Part shown: one piece after another, positions 14,421 through 58,528 of the stretch
Layout of the letters: each line of letters begins with the position of its first letter
Numbering within the stretch: position 1 is the first letter of the stretch
Assembly (NCBI GenBank): GCA_965231875.1
Contig: CBDDOM010000002.1
Span: 2,627,942 to 2,691,941 of the forward strand
Origin: Alphaproteobacteria bacterium
GTDB lineage: Bacteria; Pseudomonadota; Alphaproteobacteria; MPNO01
Reading direction: 5' to 3'
DNA: 64,000 bases
The notes under the pieces: model-generated
Told to the model about the DNA's origin: nothing
Seen by the model: only the letters and a program-made list of their open reading frames with translations
Databases searched by the model: none
Position numbers and translations under genes: made by a program

Positions 14421-14486
14421 GAGCTGCGCCTCCTGTAATTGATGTCGGTCGTTGGCCGAAGCGGCGCGCTCGTCCCCCGTCTTTCG

Positions 14487-14589
14487 CCCGTCATGGTCGG
14501 CGCAGGCCGACCATCCAAGAGTTTTTTTCTGTATCAACGGGAACACAAAAAAGCAAAACGTGGATGGTCGGCCTGCGCCGACCGTGACG
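14487..14589. repeat. Family-A REP/BIME-like palindromic element, copy 1
   Basis: Left arm cccgtcATGGTCGGCgcagGCCGACCATccaag and right arm cgtggATGGTCGGCctgcGCCGACCgtgacg are inverted. Each arm is itself a 9-bp-stem hairpin. They flank a conserved spacer with A/T runs. It lies in the ptrB-ispG divergent intergenic region. Confidence 0.8.
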
Positions 14590-14702
14590 AAAAGAAAAAT
14601 CCCGCCCCGCGAAGCCGGGACCGGCCGGAATTTTCTGCGCTTGACCGGGGAAGGCGCGGCGACAACCTTAGGCATGCCGCTGAACAGCCGAGAGGCCAGC
14701 CG

Positions 14703-18897: not shown

Positions 18898-19004
18898 CGT
18901 TCCTCAATACGGTCCCTCCCGCAAGCGGGAGGGGGGAAAGTAGGGAGGAGTGGACAAGCCTCCCTTTCCCCCGTGGGGAGAGGGTCGGGGTGAGGGGCCG
19001 TCCC

Positions 19005-24560: not shown

Positions 24561-24561
24561 G

Positions 24562-24652
24562 CCCTTCGATACGCGGCTTCGCCGCTACTCAGGATGAGGG
24601 TCTTCCGTTGTTTCCTCATCCCGAGTAGGCGCGACAGCGCCGTATCGAGGGA
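24562..24652. repeat. Family-B long imperfect palindrome, copy 1
   Basis: cccttcgatacgcggcttcgccgctactcaggatgaggg...cctcatcccgagtaggcgcgacagcgccgtatcgaggga. The arms are near-perfect reverse complements. It fills the gap between two convergent stop codons (24560 and 24663). Confidence 0.75.
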
Positions 24653-24662
24653 TGTGCGCGCC

Positions 24663-29967: not shown

Positions 29968-30017
29968 GGGTGCGAATCCCGCCCGGCGTGTTGAATGTCA
30001 CGGACGTCTGACTTAGG

Positions 30018-30864: not shown

Positions 30865-31632
30865 ATGACTTTGCTCGAAGGACACCGCGCGGCGGTCACC
30901 GGCGGAGGATCGGGGATCGGGCGCGCGATCGCGCTGGGCTATGCGGAGCAGGGCGCTGAAATCGTCGTACTCGACATCGACGGCGAAGCGGCCAAGGCGG
31001 TGCGCGACGAGATCGCGGGTGCCGGACATGCCGCGCACGCGGTTACGTTGGATGTACGCGACCGCGCGGCCTGCGTCGCGGCCGCCGGCGACATCGAAAG
31101 CTCCATCGGCGCGATCTCGATCCTCGTCAACAACGCCGGGATCAACCGCCGCAATCCGGTCACCGGCGACGCGGAGACCGTGGCGGGCGACTGGGACGAC
31201 ATCATGAGCGTCAACCTCGACGGCGTGTTCAACGTCACCCGGGCTTTCCTCGATCAGCTCCGCGCCAGCCGGGGGCGGGTGGTCAATATCGGCTCGATCC
31301 AGTCCTTCCTGCATGTCAGGACGCCCAACAGCATCGCCTATACGACCTCCAAGCACGGCGTGCTCGGCTTCACCCGCGCGCTCGCCGCCGAGCTCGGCAA
31401 GGACGGGGTGCGGGTCAACGCGGTCGGCCCCGGACTGATCGAGACCCCGCTCAACGCCGCCGCGAGAGCCCGCAACCCGGAGCTCGTGCAACTCTTCCTC
31501 GACCACACGCCGCTCGGGCGGACCGGCAAGCCCGAAGACATCGTGGGGCCGGCCATCTTCCTCGCCTCCGACCTCGCCGGCTACGTGACCGGGGGCATCG
31601 TCATGGCCGACGGGGGGTATCGGGCGATCTAG
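30865..31632 (+). CDS. SDR-family oxidoreductase
   Basis: AAVTGGGSGIGRA, NNAGI and the YTTSK catalytic motif. Confidence 0.75.
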   Translation: MTLLEGHRAAVTGGGSGIGRAIALGYAEQGAEIVVLDIDGEAAKAVRDEIAGAGHAAHAVTLDVRDRAACVAAAGDIESSIGAISILVNNAGINRRNPVTGDAETVAGDWDDIMSVNLDGVFNVTRAFLDQLRASRGRVVNIGSIQSFLHVRTPNSIAYTTSKHGVLGFTRALAAELGKDGVRVNAVGPGLIETPLNAAARARNPELVQLFLDHTPLGRTGKPEDIVGPAIFLASDLAGYVTGGIVMADGGYRAI

Positions 31633-31683
31633 GACCTGTCCGGTCCAGGTTTCGCCCCTTCGTCATTTCGACGGGAGCCGGCC

Positions 31684-32340
31684 CTAGAGGATGGGAGACC
31701 GTCGGCGGCCGAGTCCGGCGGGGGTACGGAACGGTTCGGAGAGCCGGTCCGATACCCTCGCCGCGCCTGCGCGCAGTTTCCGGATCCTCAGCACGTCGGA
31801 GAGCCGGCGCCGGAGGAAGTCATGCACGACCTCGCCGCCCGCGGAGCGGTCTTCGAGCCAAACCAGTGTCGTGGTGCCGAGCACGCCGGCAAGCAGCGCA
31901 CGCTTGGTATAGAAGCTGAAATCGTGCGAGCGGTCCCCGGCGGCGCGCCACATGCGGTCGACGGTGCAGCCGTAGCAGGCGAGGCCGAGCGCCGCGTTCT
32001 GCGGCAACCCCGCGAAGGCGACGCCGCGCCGAACGGAATCGCGATAGGGCTCAAGCGCCTCGAACCGCGCCAGCACCGCCCTCTCCACCCGTTCGCCAAG
32101 ACGCAGGCTGTGGGCGCCGCCGGTATCCAGCGCTCCGGCCATGCGGGCATCCGCCCAGTCGTTGAAGGCCCGGAACAGCTCGCGAGGTCCGCCCCGCAGA
32201 ATCCTCCTCGCCTCGACCTCGTCGATGCCAACATCCGCCGCGCCGGCCCGGATCGCCGCCGGGACCCATCCGTCGGACGCAGCATGCCGAACGGCGGCGA
32301 GAACCAGCCGGTCACGGAGGTCGTCGCTAACTTCCGCCAT
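31684..32340 (-). CDS. COQ9-family protein (rpsU-divergently-transcribed-protein-like)
   Basis: About 218 aa. LRDRLVLAAVRHAASDGW and a C-terminal YTKRALLAGVLGTTTLVWLED match the COQ9 pattern. 8 nt upstream of def, so the two are co-operonic. Confidence 0.6.
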   Translation of the reverse strand: MAEVSDDLRDRLVLAAVRHAASDGWVPAAIRAGAADVGIDEVEARRILRGGPRELFRAFNDWADARMAGALDTGGAHSLRLGERVERAVLARFEALEPYRDSVRRGVAFAGLPQNAALGLACYGCTVDRMWRAAGDRSHDFSFYTKRALLAGVLGTTTLVWLEDRSAGGEVVHDFLRRRLSDVLRIRKLRAGAARVSDRLSEPFRTPAGLGRRRSPIL

Positions 32341-33039: not shown

Positions 33040-33303
33040 ATGGCAAACATAAAATCGGCCAAGAAGCGGACGCGCCGCAACGCCCGCCGCGCCGATATCA
33101 ACGGCGCCCGCCGCGGCCGTGTCCGTACCTATGTGAAGAAGGTCGAAGCCGCGCTCGACGAGGGCAACAAGACCGCGGCGGAAGAGGCTCTCAAAGCCGC
33201 CCAGCCCGAGCTGATGCGCGGCGTATCCAAGGGCATCCTTCACCGCAACATGGCCGCCCGGAAGGTCGCGCGGCTGAACGCGAGGCTCAAGGCTCTCGGC
33301 TAG
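33040..33303 (+). CDS. rpsT: 30S ribosomal protein S20
   Basis: [17 protein letters not shown]... is the S20 signature. 87 aa. Confidence 0.9.
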
Positions 33304-33913
33304 AGCCTGTCCGACTCCGGAGAAACCGTTCCCGCCGCCATCCCGAATCCAACACGGCCGGCGGCGGCGGGGAACTGGAGGCGCTGCAAACTATCCCCGA
33401 TTTCCACAGCGGGACTAATGGCCGACGGAAGCCGCGCTGTCCTTCGCTTTGCGCGCTTCTCGCGCCGACCGAGCCGCCCGGCGGGCGACTTTTTTTCGCA
33501 ATAATTCGTCCGACCGGCCACGCCGGCGTTGCAAGTCTCTCCCGGGGCAGCTACTGTTTTGCAGTTGGGCAGCGTGGGGATGTCCTCGAAACAATAAAAA
33601 AACAGGCAAGACATTCTCTCTACTTGCGAAATCCGCGCAATACTATCGCAACACGGGACGAATACCTGACGATCGGTGTCGTTTTATTTCCTCAAAATGA
33701 GGACGGGCTAGCTTTGGGGCCAAGGTGAGCGGGTTGGAATCGCTGATACGAAACGGGCCTTGGGCCGGTCCGACGTGCATCGGATCGATGTTGGGCCGGC
33801 GGTCGCCGGCCGGTAACAAAGGCGCGGCGGCTATCGATGTGAATCGTTCGGCGAACGGTCGCGCGCTCGTCCTGTTTCCCACGAACGAATCCTGATTCCG
33901 GCGGGCGCGAAGC
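33304..33913. promoter_or_regulatory. dnaA upstream region: candidate oriC / dnaA autoregulatory region
   Basis: A 610-bp non-coding gap in an otherwise densely packed region. It has a locally AT-rich stretch (about 33585-33700: ...gaaacaataaaaaaacagg...tcgttttatttcctcaaaatgagg...). Only weak DnaA-box-like 7/9 matches, for example atttccaca at about 33405. Confidence 0.3.
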
Positions 33914-48810: not shown

Positions 48811-49401
48811 TCAGGACACCAGATCGCGCAGGCGCTTCGCCATCGTGTCCGGCGCGGTGCCGTGGCTGAAATGGGTGAGATAGCGCCCGTCCGGGTCCAT
48901 CAGGTAGATCACCGACGAATGGTCCATCAGGTAGTTCTCGCCCGCCTCGGGGTCGTCGACCTTGGCGTAGTAGACCCGGTAGGCACGCGCCGCGTTGCTG
49001 ACCTGGGCGGCGCTGCCGGAAAGCCCGATCAGCCGGGGGTGGAAGTTGGGGACGTAGTCCTTCAGCACCGCCGGCGTGTCGCGGTCGGGGTCGATGGTGA
49101 TGAAGACCGGCTGCACCCGGGCGGCGTCGGGGCCGAGCTCGTCGAGCGCGATCAGCATGTCGGCGAGCGCCGTCGGGCACACGTCGGGGCAGAAGCTGTA
49201 GCCGAAATAGATCAGCGCGTGCCGCCCCTTGAGGTCGGCCTCGGTGCGCTCCGCCCCGGTGTGATCGACCAGGACGAACGGCCCGCCGATCCTGGCGATC
49301 CCGCCGCCGTCGTCGCGCCAGACATAGACCGCCACGATCGCCGCCACCGCGACCGTCATGAACAGCGTGGCGAGGATGATCGTGACCTTGCGATCGGACA
49401 T
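48811..49401 (-). CDS. SCO1/SenC-family copper chaperone (thioredoxin fold)
   Basis: N-terminal TM segment and the [11 protein letters not shown] CxxxC motif. 196 aa. Confidence 0.75.
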
Positions 49402-49488
49402 GGGGGCGCTCGCGGTGGGTGGGGCTCTCAGAGACTGAATTTAGGGCGGACGGGGCGGATTGGCCACCAGAGGTAGCGCCGGTTCCTT

Positions 49489-49586
49489 CCCGTCATGGTG
49501 GGCGGAGGCCCACCATCCACGAGTTTTTCTGTGCGGACGGCACAACAAAATAAGACGTGGATGGTCCGCCTGCGCCGACCATGACG
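49489..49586. repeat. Family-A REP/BIME-like palindromic element, copy 2
   Basis: Same architecture and spacer as copy 1. The left hairpin reads ATGGTGGGCggagGCCCACCAT. That is a compensatory double change (C->G in one stem strand, G->C in the other) relative to ATGGTCGGC...GCCGACCAT. Confidence 0.8.
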
Positions 49587-49606
49587 TTTCGTGAGTCCGG
49601 CCCCGA

Positions 49607-50545
49607 TCAAAACGCCCGGTGGATCAGCTCCTCCCCGGCGAGGAAGCGTTTCAGGTTTTCCAGCCAGATCTCGCCCACGCGCACGGTGTAGAGCGGCGTC
49701 ATGCAGGCGGCGTGGGGGGAAATGAACAGGTTGGGGATGTCCCAGAGGTCGCTGTCGGCGGGCAGGGGCTCGGTGGGCAGCACGTCGACGAAGGCCTGGG
49801 CGATGCCGCCGGTGGCGAGCGCGCCCTGGAGCGCCTCGATATCGACCAGCGCGCCGCGCCCGACATTGACCAGCGTCGCGGTGGGCTTCATCCGGGCGAG
49901 CGCCTCGGCCCCGATCATGCCGGCGGTCTCGCCGGTGTTGGGGACGGCGAGGACCACGAAATCCGCCTCCGGCAGGAACGCGGCAAGGTCGTCGAGCGTC
50001 CCCTGCCGGTCGAGCCCGGGCACCGGATCGGGCGACCGGCGGATGCCGTGCACCGTCATCCCGAACGCGCCCGCATAGGCCGCGACGCGGCTGCCGATGG
50101 CGCCGAGCCCGACGACGAGGACGGTGGACGCGCTCAGCCCGGCCTGCTTGAGCTGGTGCCACTCATGCGCGCGTTGCAGGTCGCGGAACTCAGCCAGCCG
50201 CTTCGCCCCCCACATCACGCCGGCGAAGGCGAACTCCGCGACCTCGGGCGCGTTGGCGCCGGGGCTGTGGGTGACCGCCACCCCCTTGGCCCGCATGTCG
50301 TCATAGAACCGCCCGTCGATCCCCGCATCCTCGGTATGCGCCCATCTGGGCGGGGAGATGGAGATCGCGGTGTCGACGAAGGCGTCGGTGTAGGCGTCGC
50401 CGGCGTAGATCACGACATCGGAGCCCTCGGGCGAGACGGTCCAGTTGCTCCCGCGGTCTGTCAATGCCCATTCGATGCCGGGGCAGAACGCCTCGGCTTG
50501 CGCCGCCACCTCGTCGTGGAAATCGTGCGCCGCCGCGATTTTCAT
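49607..50545 (-). CDS. D-isomer-specific 2-hydroxyacid dehydrogenase family protein
   Basis: NAD-binding VGLGAIGSRVA motif. Catalytic-domain layout. Start at MKIAAAHDF. Confidence 0.75.
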   Translation of the reverse strand: MKIAAAHDFHDEVAAQAEAFCPGIEWALTDRGSNWTVSPEGSDVVIYAGDAYTDAFVDTAISISPPRWAHTEDAGIDGRFYDDMRAKGVAVTHSPGANAPEVAEFAFAGVMWGAKRLAEFRDLQRAHEWHQLKQAGLSASTVLVVGLGAIGSRVAAYAGAFGMTVHGIRRSPDPVPGLDRQGTLDDLAAFLPEADFVVLAVPNTGETAGMIGAEALARMKPTATLVNVGRGALVDIEALQGALATGGIAQAFVDVLPTEPLPADSDLWDIPNLFISPHAACMTPLYTVRVGEIWLENLKRFLAGEELIHRAF

Positions 50546-50684: not shown

Positions 50685-50927
50685 ATGCGACAGGTCCAGC
50701 TGCGCGAGGCCAAGGCGAGGCTGTCCGCCCTGGTCGACGGGGCGGCGGAGGGGGAGGCGACGATCGTCACGCGCCACGGCAAGCCGCGGGCCGTGATCGT
50801 CGGGATCGACGAATGGAACCGCCTCAGCAACGTCCCGTCCTTCGGCCGCCTGCTGCTCGCTTCGGAACTGGAGGACGGGGACCTGCCCCCGCGCGACACC
50901 GCCCCGCCGCGCGAGGCCGGGCTATAG
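50685..50927 (+). CDS. Type II antitoxin, Phd/YefM family
   Basis: 80 aa. MRQVQLREAKARLSALVDGAAEGEATIVTRHGKPRAVIVGIDEW is the canonical Phd/YefM N-domain. Confidence 0.7.
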   Translation: MRQVQLREAKARLSALVDGAAEGEATIVTRHGKPRAVIVGIDEWNRLSNVPSFGRLLLASELEDGDLPPRDTAPPREAGL

Positions 50928-50967
50928 AACGCATCCGTTTCAGGCGGAACCGCGTCCGCTGTTTCTG

Positions 50968-51079
50968 CCCGTCATGGTCGGCGTAGGCCGACCATCCACG
51001 TTTTCTCTTTTGTTGTTCTCCATCTGCATACCGGGCGAGAAAAAAACTCGTGGATGGTCGGCCTACGCCGACCATGACG
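50968..51079. repeat. Family-A REP/BIME-like palindromic element, copy 3 (inverted orientation, longer spacer)
   Basis: Hairpins read ATGGTCGGCgtagGCCGACCAT. The spacer is the reverse complement of the copy-1/2 spacer, with an 18-bp insertion. It sits between the Phd antitoxin gene and the VapC toxin gene. Confidence 0.8.
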
Positions 51080-51138
51080 GTGGGGGTGCGCCAGCCCGAC
51101 CGGTTCCGACCGAACCGGACACGCTCTAGGACCGCGTC

Positions 51139-51576
51139 GTGTACCTGGCCGACACCGATGTTCTGTCGACCGATGCGCCCGGCCGGCGGGAACGCTCCGC
51201 GGCCCTGGTCGACTGGATGGACGCGCGGTCGGACGCCTTGTTCCTGTCCACGATCACCGTCGCCGAAATCCGGCACGGCATCGCCAAGCTGGAACGGACC
51301 GGCGCCGCAGACAGGGCGGCGCGCCTCGGCGACTGGCTCGAACTCGTGCTCCATCTCTATGGCGACCGGGTAATCCCGTTCGACATAGAAGCCGCCAACG
51401 CCGCGGGGCCGCTGATGGACAAGGCGCGCGCGACGGGCCAGTCGCCCGGCTTCGCCGACCTCGCCATCGCCGCGACGGCAGACAGCCGGAACCTGACGGT
51501 GCTAACGCGCAACCTGCGTCACTTTGAGCCGCTGGATATCCAAGCGGTAAATCCGTTCGAAGCGTCGCCGGACTAA
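51139..51576 (+). CDS. Type II toxin, VapC (PIN-domain ribonuclease)
   Basis: YLADTDVLS...STITVAEIRHGIA...DLAIAATADSRNLTVLTRNLRHF is a PIN/VapC signature with intact acidic residues. Apparent GTG start with no obvious RBS. A stop codon lies 3 codons upstream in frame. Confidence 0.7.
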   Translation: MYLADTDVLSTDAPGRRERSAALVDWMDARSDALFLSTITVAEIRHGIAKLERTGAADRAARLGDWLELVLHLYGDRVIPFDIEAANAAGPLMDKARATGQSPGFADLAIAATADSRNLTVLTRNLRHFEPLDIQAVNPFEASPD

Positions 51577-57303: not shown

Positions 57304-58226
57304 ACGCACCGCCGGATATCTTCCGTGTCCCCCAGCCGATCGAGAGCTTCGACGCCGAGATGGAGGACGGCGCCGTCATCCGCGTCCGCCGCCACGGCAA
57401 CCCGGACGGGCCCAGGCTGACGATGGCGCACGGCAACGGCTTCGCCATCGACGCCTATTACCCGTTCTGGCGGCTGCTGACCGACCGCTACGACCTCGCG
57501 ATCTACGACCAGCGCAACCACGGCCAGAACCCGCGCCACGACGCGGAGCGCCACGACGTTCCCGCCTTCGTCGCCGACATGGACCGGCTGATCGACCTCA
57601 TCTCCGAGCGTTTCGGCCCCAAGCCGACGGTCGGCGTGTTCCATTCGATCTCGGCGGTCACCGCGATCCGGCATGCGCTGGAGCATGGCTGGCGCTGGGA
57701 CGCGCTGGCGCTGTTCGACCCGCCGCTGATCCCCTCGCCCGGCCACCAGGCGCACGAGGTCGCGCGGACGTTCGAGCTGGGCCTCGCGGACTGGGCGGCG
57801 GCGCGGCCGGACCGTTTCTCGACCGCGATGGATCTCGCCGCCCGCTTCGCCCGGTCGAAGAGCCTCGCGCGCTGGGTGGAAGGCGGGCATGCCCTGATGG
57901 CGCGCTCGATCGTCCGCGAGGACCCGGAGACCGGGGAGTTCGTGCTGTGCTGCCCGCGCGAGGGGGAATCACGGGTCTACCGCACCAATGCCGGGATGGA
58001 CCTCTGCCCGCGCCTCGGCGAGCTCAAGGGACCGCTGGTCTTCATCTCGTCCGACCCCGACGCGCCGGGCGCGCTGGCTCCCGGCAAGGTCGGCCGCGCG
58101 ATGCAGGAAGACCACGGCATCGCGTGGACCCCGATCGAAAACACCAGCCACCTGCTCCAGATCGAACGCCCCGACGCCTGTCACACGGCGCTGGAAGCGT
58201 TCCTGGCGCGGCAGTCCCTGGGCTAG
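57300..58226 (+). CDS. Alpha/beta hydrolase, paralog 2 (non-canonical HS-x-SA nucleophile elbow)
   Basis: HGNGFAIDAYYPFW ... GVFHSISAVTA. The start overlaps the paralog-1 stop as ATGA. Confidence 0.65.
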   Translation: MNAPPDIFRVPQPIESFDAEMEDGAVIRVRRHGNPDGPRLTMAHGNGFAIDAYYPFWRLLTDRYDLAIYDQRNHGQNPRHDAERHDVPAFVADMDRLIDLISERFGPKPTVGVFHSISAVTAIRHALEHGWRWDALALFDPPLIPSPGHQAHEVARTFELGLADWAAARPDRFSTAMDLAARFARSKSLARWVEGGHALMARSIVREDPETGEFVLCCPREGESRVYRTNAGMDLCPRLGELKGPLVFISSDPDAPGALAPGKVGRAMQEDHGIAWTPIENTSHLLQIERPDACHTALEAFLARQSLG

Positions 58227-58267
58227 AGACTGTCCGATTCACTTGGAGCCGCCGCGCGAGCGGGGCG

Positions 58268-58370
58268 CCCTTCGATACGCGGCTTCGCCGCTACTCAGGG
58301 TGAGGGATGGGCTGTCGACGGCCAAAAAGTCTCCTCATCCCGAGTAGGCGCGAAGCGCCGTATCGAGGGA
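58268..58370. repeat. Family-B long imperfect palindrome, copy 2
   Basis: cccttcgatacgcggcttcgccgctactcagggtgaggg...cctcatcccgagtaggcgcgaagcgccgtatcgaggga. The arms are nearly identical to copy 1 and the spacer is different. It lies about 40 nt after the hydrolase stop. Confidence 0.75.
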
Positions 58371-58453
58371 CGCCACGTCGGCACGGTTCCATCCAACACG
58401 GATAGACCCCTGAGCGCCCCCGGAGATCCGAAAATAGTCCCGTTTCGGGACAA

Positions 58454-58469
58454 TGTTTCACGTGAAACA
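58454..58469. other. parS site 1 (perfect match to canonical ParB-binding centromere sequence)
   Basis: TGTTTCACGTGAAACA is a perfect 16-bp palindrome, identical to the canonical parS consensus TGTTNCACGTGAAACA. Confidence 0.75.
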
Positions 58470-58490
58470 ATGGTCAACAATGCTGACCTA

Positions 58491-58506
58491 TGTTTCACGT
58501 GAAACA
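58491..58506. other. parS site 2 (perfect match), 21 bp from site 1
   Basis: A second exact TGTTTCACGTGAAACA. The 21-bp gap between the sites holds the small palindrome GGTCA-acaatgc-TGACC. Confidence 0.75.
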
Positions 58507-58528
58507 TTAGGCGCGGTTCCCGGCGGCG

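Follow-up and report, generated by a model that had tools for sequence, protein, structure and literature searches.

Miniature inverted-repeat transposable elements (MITEs) of the IS630 family, which duplicate a TA at their target, include RUP of Streptococcus pneumoniae and the Correia/NEMIS elements of Neisseria. Another kind of intergenic repeat is formed by the repetitive extragenic palindromes (REPs) of Escherichia coli and Pseudomonas, which occur in bacterial interspersed mosaic elements (BIMEs) and as REP doublets forming hairpins (REPINs; Bertels & Rainey; PMC5581495), and the Alphaproteobacteria Bradyrhizobium and Rhodopseudomonas carry Br-REP1 and Br-REP2, intergenic multi-palindrome repeats with hundreds of copies, found in 3' untranslated regions (UTRs) (PMC5082802). 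Here we describe a hairpin-doublet element that is present in three copies in a 64,000-nt stretch of an alphaproteobacterial genome (contig CBDDOM010000002.1, positions 2,627,942 to 2,691,941; hereafter the window), and which an earlier note had compared to BIMEs mobilised by REP-associated tyrosine transposases (RAYTs) or, alternatively, to a MITE.

The third of these copies is like the IS630 MITEs in being short (200 nt), non-coding and intergenic, in bearing terminal inverted repeats that match those of an autonomous IS630-family insertion sequence (IS), in duplicating TA within a CTAG-like target and in being an insertion polymorphism between close genomes. Unlike them, it has exactly in its middle a 120-nt hairpin doublet that is conserved in its own right and also occurs free and in an unrelated 287-nt MITE with 8-bp duplications. 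With REPINs and REP-BIMEs the element shares the inverted doublets of 30-nt imperfect-palindrome hairpins, an extragenic location, abundance, persistence at orthologous sites, conserved feet with co-varying stems, and a mosaic association with other modules (Bertels & Rainey; PMC5581495). It differs from them in that no RAYT was found (window and 112 related loci, single distant query) and no conserved GTAG head is present, in that its arm sequence is common to several alphaproteobacterial orders, and in showing target duplications where its ends are definable. Br-REP1 and Br-REP2 are the nearest described alphaproteobacterial repeats and likewise turn over rapidly between related genomes, but their sequences are different and unrelated (Br-REP1 is CCGGAATCTCGAGATTCCGG), and neither a bulged-hairpin doublet nor a MITE shell nor a target duplication is described for them (PMC5082802).

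In our interpretation, the element is probably a non-autonomous mobile repeat with a hairpin pair as its core, which moves both within an IS630-type MITE and alone, and whose hairpins are maintained. The arms of the three copies are located as follows:

14489-14519 and 14559-14589: the two arms of copy 1
49491-49521 and 49556-49586: the two arms of copy 2
50970-51000 and 51049-51079: the two arms of copy 3

Each copy consists of two inverted 31-nt bulged hairpins on either side of a T-run/A-run spacer and, read toward the element centre, the arm sequence is CGT-C-ATGGTCGGC-GNAG-GCCGACCAT-CC-ACG. The pattern ATGGTCGGC-N3-GGCCGACCAT, with up to three mismatches allowed, finds exactly six sites in the 64 kb (12 matches on both strands), and these are just the six arms listed, compared to a chance expectation of 0.02 sites for the hairpin pattern in shuffled sequence. 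De novo repeat finding on the window recovers the three-copy families D3 and D4 as well as the arm pairs I2-I8. The spacer is asymmetric, with ACGAGTTTTT at one side and AAAAACAAAACGT (AAAACAAAACGT) at the other, and copy 3 can therefore be recognized as inverted with respect to copies 1 and 2. About nine pyrimidines lie outside each arm and, in the subfamily present in the window, a T-run lies inside each arm, at all six of them. The units span 123-200 nt, are non-coding and hold no open reading frame (ORF), and their arms are inverted repeats of at least 40 nt. Copy 1 is located between the divergent genes ptrB and ispG, copy 2 between two minus-strand genes, next to the 3' end of one for a 2-hydroxyacid dehydrogenase and to the 5' end of sco, and copy 3 between phd and vapC. 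The earlier note had the three copies, the inversion of copy 3 and the intergenic position of all of them right.

Copy 3 provides the link to a known family of mobile elements, and its parts are:

50927-51126, minus strand: copy 3, a complete 200-nt IS630-family MITE with the hairpin doublet at its centre
50927-50950, plus strand: left outer terminal inverted repeat, GAACGCATCCGTTTCAGGCGGAAC, which matches the ends of the IS on metagenome contig L126
51103-51126, minus strand: right outer terminal inverted repeat, reverse complement GAGCGTGTCCGGTTCGGTCGGAAC
50925-50926, no strand: left TA duplication; the phd stop codon TAG (50925-50927) consists of this TA and the G that begins the MITE
51127-51128, no strand: right TA duplication, followed by G, with the GTG start of vapC 10 nt on, at 51139

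The outer repeats of copy 3 are GAACGCATCCGTTTCAGG and GAGCGTGTCCGGTTCGG, with terminal inverted repeats of 14-24 nt, and its junctions read ...GGGC-TA-GAACGCATCCG...CGGACACGCTC-TA-GGACC.... Doublets in such a shell, copy 3 included, carry about 45-50 nt more per side and end in CTAG-AGCSTRTCCGTTTYAG; the profile of the shelled form has 188 positions and was made from nine copies including copy 3, whose full-length match to it is thus partly so by construction. The earlier note had seen no clean target-site duplication. This does not hold for copy 3, where the TA duplication is found at the true ends, 43-47 nt outside the arms, and was missed because the borders of the arms were examined and not the true ends of the element. 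The MITE alternative proves to be the better half of the earlier interpretation. The two nearest genomes (L119 and L120) hold an empty site in place of copy 3, with the vapC start 9 nt after the phd stop, compared to 211 nt between phd and vapC (together 50685-51576) in the window. As a consequence of the insertion, two inward-facing hairpin/U-tract arms stand between phd and vapC.

The shell itself can be traced to an autonomous element. A scan of metagenomes with the outer repeat returned 39 contigs, and contig L126 carries a complete, TA-flanked IS of 1.05 kb with the ends GAGCGTGTCCGTTTTAGATGGAA and GAGCGTGTCCGCTTTAGGCGGAA, whose two overlapping ORFs match HTH_Tnp_IS630 (E = 1.5e-5) and DDE_3 (E = 1.2e-34). 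The end sequence of the IS630-type shell is given as GAGCGTRTCCGTTT, and several other metagenome contigs have the same end beside remnants of related transposases. Furthermore, 48-nt "empty shells", consisting of the two terminal repeats alone with no cargo, occur on nine metagenome contigs; a shell-only profile search of the related loci is too insensitive to show them. Since the ends of the L126 IS are those of the shell, and since empty shells exist, the shell is an IS630-family MITE and the doublet its cargo. This autonomous IS with matching terminal repeats applies to the copy 3 shell only and lies on a metagenome contig rather than in the window's genome; a parent IS was found neither for the core nor for the shell of 287 nt.

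In copy 3, the core travels as cargo at the centre of the 200-nt MITE, between outer repeats of an IS630-family IS, and in the proposed mechanism an IS630-type DDE transposase acting in trans would cut and paste the MITE into the TA of a YTAG target, with duplication of the TA. As CTAG is presumably rare in the GC-rich genome of the window, such insertions would often fall on TAG stop codons and rebuild them. The CTAG of four terminal repeats in the window coincides with the TAG stop of the upstream gene (31632, 33303, 50927 and 58226), and at copy 3 the phd stop is made of the duplicated TA and the first base of the element. Landing on TAG stops and rebuilding them amounts to harmless insertion at gene ends, which in this case splits the phd-vapC toxin-antitoxin pair. 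A further target is seen at window positions 30013-30016, an unoccupied TTAG between two genes, for which the orthologous site in the complete chromosome OZ220750.1 (L083 3624-4219) is occupied by a pair of shelled copies that lie 362 nt apart and have CTAG at their flanks. A variant inverted repeat, GTGAGAAATCCGGG, is formed by the inner ends of this pair. The window has additional IS630-type terminal repeats at 31629-31690, 33300-33319 and 58223-58242 (CTAGGACCTGTCCGG, CTAGAGCCTGTCCGAC and CTAGAGACTGTCCGAT), of which those at 31629-31690 and 33300-33319 look like solo ends or degenerate mini-elements.

In addition to the shelled form, the core is found alone, and copy 1 is the case in which an insertion of the bare core can be followed:

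14477-14599, plus strand: copy 1, a 123-nt core-only unit specific to the window's lineage
14473-14476, no strand: TCCC, left direct repeat of copy 1
14600-14603, no strand: TCCC, right direct repeat of copy 1

Copy 1 consists of a 13-nt pyrimidine-rich extension, the left arm, the spacer (14520-14558), the right arm and an 11-nt purine-rich extension, has neither IS630 shell nor TA, and is covered by an nhmmer match to the family at 14469-14597. The ptrB-ispG spacer measures about 280 nt in the window compared to 138-156 nt in six relatives (IspG 91-95% identical), and in the spacers of these six no arm or shell is found, even at E = 10. When 14477-14599 and one TCCC are removed from the window, the remaining sequence, CGTCCCGCCC, is identical to that of the relatives, whose empty sites hold one TCCC; copy 1 is therefore a 123-nt lineage-specific insertion. 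The ends of the core can also be read from composition: among 95 non-redundant unshelled flanks, C occupies position -1 in 97%, pyrimidines make up 80-90% at -2 and from -4 to -9, and background is reached from -10, which places the ends of the core about 9-13 nt outside the arms. The core of about 123 nt can also insert alone, as copy 1 did; as a general rule, the 4-nt flanking repeat is tentative. The metagenome contig that encodes the closest IspG (96% identity) breaks off 20 nt upstream of the gene (L162 1-20); this could be an assembly break at a repeat, in which case the closest relative would carry copy 1 too.

Copy 2 differs from the other two in age:

49491-49586, plus strand: copy 2, a core doublet with the GTGGGC/GCCCAC variant in the left arm and one C-C mismatch in the right arm

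The family match at this copy spans 49474-49587. Its ortholog in the metagenome-assembled genome (MAG) CBDBCV (L032 178-271, the same as L120 1361-1454) has the same GTGGGC/GCCCAC variant, which therefore predates the split of the two genomes, and in OZ220750.1 (L119) the site holds no element and a pemK/phd cassette instead. Copy 2 is an older insertion, common to the window and CBDBCV. The spacer between sco and the 2-hydroxyacid dehydrogenase gene (49401-49607; L119 841-1701; L120 1273-1703) is a hot spot of change, and at this position CBDBCV has the element and about 250 nt with a 55-codon ORF, and the window the element alone.

The family extends far beyond the window. Scanning reference genomes with a 27-nt arm pattern gave at least 112 eight-kb blocks, and all counts of doublets given here refer to these blocks together with the window. 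The hosts of the listed blocks are mainly alphaproteobacterial MAGs and isolates, with a few contigs binned elsewhere; among the matches listed, they include Dongiaceae, Rhodopila, Acidisphaera, Defluviicoccus, Kiloniellales and Beijerinckiaceae, and the same 27-mer is common to several alphaproteobacterial orders. Arms are present in Rhodopila globiformis DSM 161 and in Acidisphaera sp. S103, for example. The doublet is the regular form, with at least 77 convergent doublets compared to one pair in another arrangement, and with relaxed matching only 13 apparent single arms are left, most of which have a diverged partner. The start-to-start spacing of the arms has its mode at 65 nt and ranges from 54 to 245. 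OZ220750.1, a single complete chromosome of 4.79 Mb, has at least 15 doublets within the recovered blocks. The window DNA is 85-92% identical to OZ220750.1 and to CBDBCV, and its IspG is 91-96% identical to proteins labelled Defluviicoccus, which makes its source an alphaproteobacterium of the Defluviicoccus-like kind. The copies found elsewhere and the insertion polymorphisms of copies 1 and 3 bear out the suggestion of a dispersed mobile structured family that is not confined to the three loci of the window.

A BLAST search of plasmid records gave no match to the element, and viral contigs gave only two; phages are not its main carrier. Rfam has no family for it, the gathering threshold being passed in the window only by a tRNA, and a permissive Rfam search yields for the element only far-sub-threshold matches to generic microRNA-hairpin models. 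Literature searches with the literal sequence and for alphaproteobacterial REP or MITE descriptions retrieved no matching family either. Judged by its sequence, the family appears to be new, and the general kinds to which it would belong, IS630 MITEs and REP/REPIN-like doublets, are well known.

Each arm is built from a foot of 3 bp (CGT/ACG), a 1x2 internal loop and a stem of 9 bp whose middle is variable, closed by a GNAG tetraloop; as an isolated RNA it folds as drawn at -19 kcal/mol, with a U-tract next to it, and the whole element as RNA forms one long hairpin of -57 to -80 kcal/mol (z = -7 to -13). The compensatory change that had been noticed in the left arm of copy 2 is real, GTGGGC/GCCCAC standing for GTCGGC/GCCGAC, and recurs in the orthologous copy of the related genome. 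On the larger sample, the same tendency holds: the scan pattern had left two paired stem positions free (S...S), and among the matches listed these are C..G in 148, G..C in 14, C..C in 1 and G..G in 0 cases. In 60 distinct arms picked by their outer anchors only, 96.4% of cells are paired compared to 87.6% in shuffles, with 50 double-change cells compared to 12.4, and six pairs show changes at both sides; the observed covariation values are reached by none of 500 shuffles, and slid controls drop to 19-48% paired. Hardly any change is seen in the foot, in stem pairs one to three or in the GGC/GCC top; the middle three to five pairs are variable.

The long hairpin of the whole element is the minimum-energy fold. 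In 30 doublets with differing arms, local pairing averages 17.2 of 18 compared to 15.4 of 18 for arm-to-arm pairing, and local pairing exceeds the other in 19 of the 30 and falls below it in none. Each arm therefore keeps its own pairing when the arms differ, and the unit that is maintained is the individual hairpin rather than the arm-to-arm pairing. This points to recognition or function of the hairpins as single-stranded DNA or RNA and, with the hairpins co-varying across orders, to something that reads their structure. They may serve as a protein-recognised structure in mobilisation, as inward-facing terminator-like insulators, or as both. A preferred strand is not apparent from the mismatches, with G.T outnumbering A.C by 21 to 11 (p = 0.11, not significant).

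The same core occupies the middle of a second, 287-nt MITE with different ends (GGRGCTTATAYCGATTACTTGAC), which is found in CBDBCV, CBDBCA and OZ220750.1. Of six copies of it, four have AT-rich duplications of 8 bp at their flanks, identity among seven copies in one genome is 99-100%, and in two of its relatives the centre is taken by another hairpin subfamily, GTCATGCCCGGACTTGTTCCGGGCATCCACG. The doublet is thus a conserved building block that is used in at least two unrelated MITE chassis and is also found free. The IS21, IS3, IS256, IS4-like and IS66-like transposases of the related loci have been considered as well, and their ends do not match the 287-nt MITE. In related genomes, ISs lie against or inside copies of the element (L026 2794-4375, L078 1-863, L056 2612-3668): the 287-nt MITE has an IS21-family element directly beside it, one copy is truncated by an IS256-family element, and another IS630-family member with the ends GAGCGGGATGA sits in a CTAG at a distance of 17 nt from a core doublet. 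By analogy, REPs that serve as insertion-sequence targets come to mind.

Several observations weigh against the interpretation of the element as a mobile repeat that moves in its MITE and alone with maintained hairpins. First, no transposase of any kind was found in the window, in agreement with the earlier note; homologues of the IS630, IS21, IS3, IS256, IS4-like and IS66-like transposases of the related loci are all absent from it, and for this reason mobilisation in trans is something we infer for this genome. Second, mobility of the bare core rests on one clean empty-site comparison, in which the TCCC repeat could be microhomology, and flanking repeats of 3-5 nt are no more frequent at 36 core-only copies than in mismatched controls, a comparison of low power at these lengths. 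Third, intrastrand template switching in DNA palindromes yields paired changes in the absence of selection, and covariation alone is therefore no proof of function. Fourth, a strict terminator scan does not call the arms, and there are short-spacer and long-spacer subfamilies that have the same hairpins without the T-runs. Finally, the exact central position of the core in two unrelated shells is unexplained, nested insertion into palindrome centres and outward palindrome growth being conceivable routes to it.

The most far-reaching alternative we regard as unlikely. Here, the doublet would be an autonomous module, older and more widespread than its carriers, which is read as a single-stranded hairpin by a non-RAYT protein or acts as a two-way transcriptional insulator, and which has repeatedly come to lie centrally in unrelated DDE-type MITEs, namely the IS630 shell with its TA and the 287-nt shell with its 8-bp duplications. 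To reach this arrangement, the palindrome might, as one route, have grown outward and copied the end of a neighbouring IS by snap-back. If true, it would amount to a general way to build new MITEs around a hairpin core.

Quite unlikely, and possible but unsupported, is the reading that stays closest to the earlier note, in which the doublets are REPINs copied by a domesticated single-copy RAYT (Y1/HUH) encoded elsewhere in the genome, with the MITE shells as secondary hitch-hiking. Two inverted imperfect-palindrome hairpins with a short spacer, nearly always present as doublets, are what this reading describes, and a conserved foot and bulge with a variable stem middle are as for a hairpin-recognising protein; core-only copies have no detectable duplication of 5 bp or more, and orthologous copies are retained in different species. 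REPs normally flank the RAYT gene to which they belong, which makes the 112 arm-centred blocks a reasonable place to find one. However, a tblastn search of the window and these loci (about 1 Mb, of which the related loci make up about 0.9 Mb) with E. coli RayT, a single distant query, gave no match better than E = 1.6, and among 699 predicted proteins from the loci, once clustered, no gene family recurs beside the arms. This agrees with the earlier note's statement that no RAYT is in the window, and the RAYT/BIME reading of that note is left with no positive evidence. RAYTs are, furthermore, reported to be rare in Alphaproteobacteria (PMC5581495). The occurrence of the same 27-mer in several orders is unlike the lineage-specific REPs of RAYT systems, and the recent bursts of 99-100% identical copies involve the shell with its terminal repeats and target-site duplication, not the bare doublet. 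REPINs would be expected to leave no target-site duplication, whereas flanking repeats are found where the ends are defined (TA at copy 3, the 4-nt TCCC at copy 1); the bulk of core-only copies show no duplication signal, so this point is not decisive for them.

We consider it doubtful, and give it less credence than the two readings above, that the element is kept for a host function as a portable bidirectional terminator or insulator or as a 3'-UTR stabiliser. An arm of about -19 kcal/mol directly followed by UUUUGUUUUU or AGUUUUU, inward T-runs at all six arms of the window and the conservation of local hairpins, as co-transcriptional folding would use them, speak for such a function, and in a terminator geometry that tolerates the 3-bp foot and the internal loop, only 0-2 nt separate the stem from the start of the U-tract. 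Doublets are intergenic in 76 of 77 cases and mildly enriched between convergent genes (21 of 67, compared to 50 of 296 control gaps; p about 0.02). Nevertheless, a terminator would be of no use, or would do harm, at copy 1, which has divergent promoters on its two sides, and at copy 3, which is within an operon, and the result of the strict terminator scan, the subfamilies without T-runs and the lack of significant strand asymmetry in the mismatches tell against it as well. Nor is there an orientation bias to gene 3' ends: orientation relative to the neighbouring genes is random (A-side 22, B-side 21), which fits selfish insertion, and the divergent promoter, tandem spacer and operon sites in the window fit a selfish element that is tolerated mainly outside promoters. 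For such an element, the doublet could act as two facing terminators which insulate the element itself.

That copies 2 and 3 are only 1.4 kb apart and that each arm is a near-perfect 22-bp palindrome might suggest that the copies were duplicated locally, that the palindrome is due to chance or that a dimeric regulator uses it as a double-stranded operator, all of which are extremely improbable given hundreds of copies with unrelated flanks in many genomes, copies that are insertion polymorphisms with target duplications, a chance expectation far below one site and symmetric compensatory changes that are unexpected for a double-stranded site.

Our preferred interpretation, a MITE-borne and separately mobile hairpin core, leaves the kinds of element known to exist unchanged. 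It nevertheless provides a sequence-defined repeat family for a poorly studied group, the Defluviicoccus-like and other Alphaproteobacteria, for which the ends, the targets and one family of mobilising transposases have been defined, and which can be used in annotation, as the arms create spurious ORFs and break assemblies, as well as in strain typing. What goes beyond a routine MITE is the structure-conserved core common to free units and two unrelated MITE shells, together with the covariation of its hairpins across orders and the landing of the IS630 shell on TAG stop codons, which it rebuilds.

Further repeats were observed in the window and its relatives. A second palindromic family, GCCCTTCGATACGCGGCTTCGCCGCTACTCAGGRTGAGG...CCTCATCCCGAGTAGGCGCGA.GCGCCGTATCGAGGG, is located at 24561-24659 and 58266-58376, with the first 40 nt 98% identical between the two copies, and is also found in L083, L070, L051 and L097. 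The second of these copies lies inside the same kind of IS630-type shell (58225-58415; CTAGAGACTGTCCGATTCACTTGGAGCCGC ... GGTTCCATCCAACACGGATAGACC), so that at least two different cargos are known for this shell. At 18910-18998 there is a third family of short repeats, about 90 nt long, which shows 73-82% identity to sequences in L083 and L097 and to two copies in L017. In addition, a repeat of about 100 nt at 58417-58515, 85% identical to L051 1968-2069, contains two copies of the perfect palindrome ATGTTTCACGTGAAACA and could be a pair of regulator binding sites or another repeat family. Finally, OZ220750.1 has a different palindromic repeat, CCCCTCCCGCTTGCCCC...GGGGCTTGCGGGAGGGG, at L030 2850-2925, where a Defluviicoccus MAG (L063) has the doublet, and repeat families thus turn over rapidly at one and the same spot.

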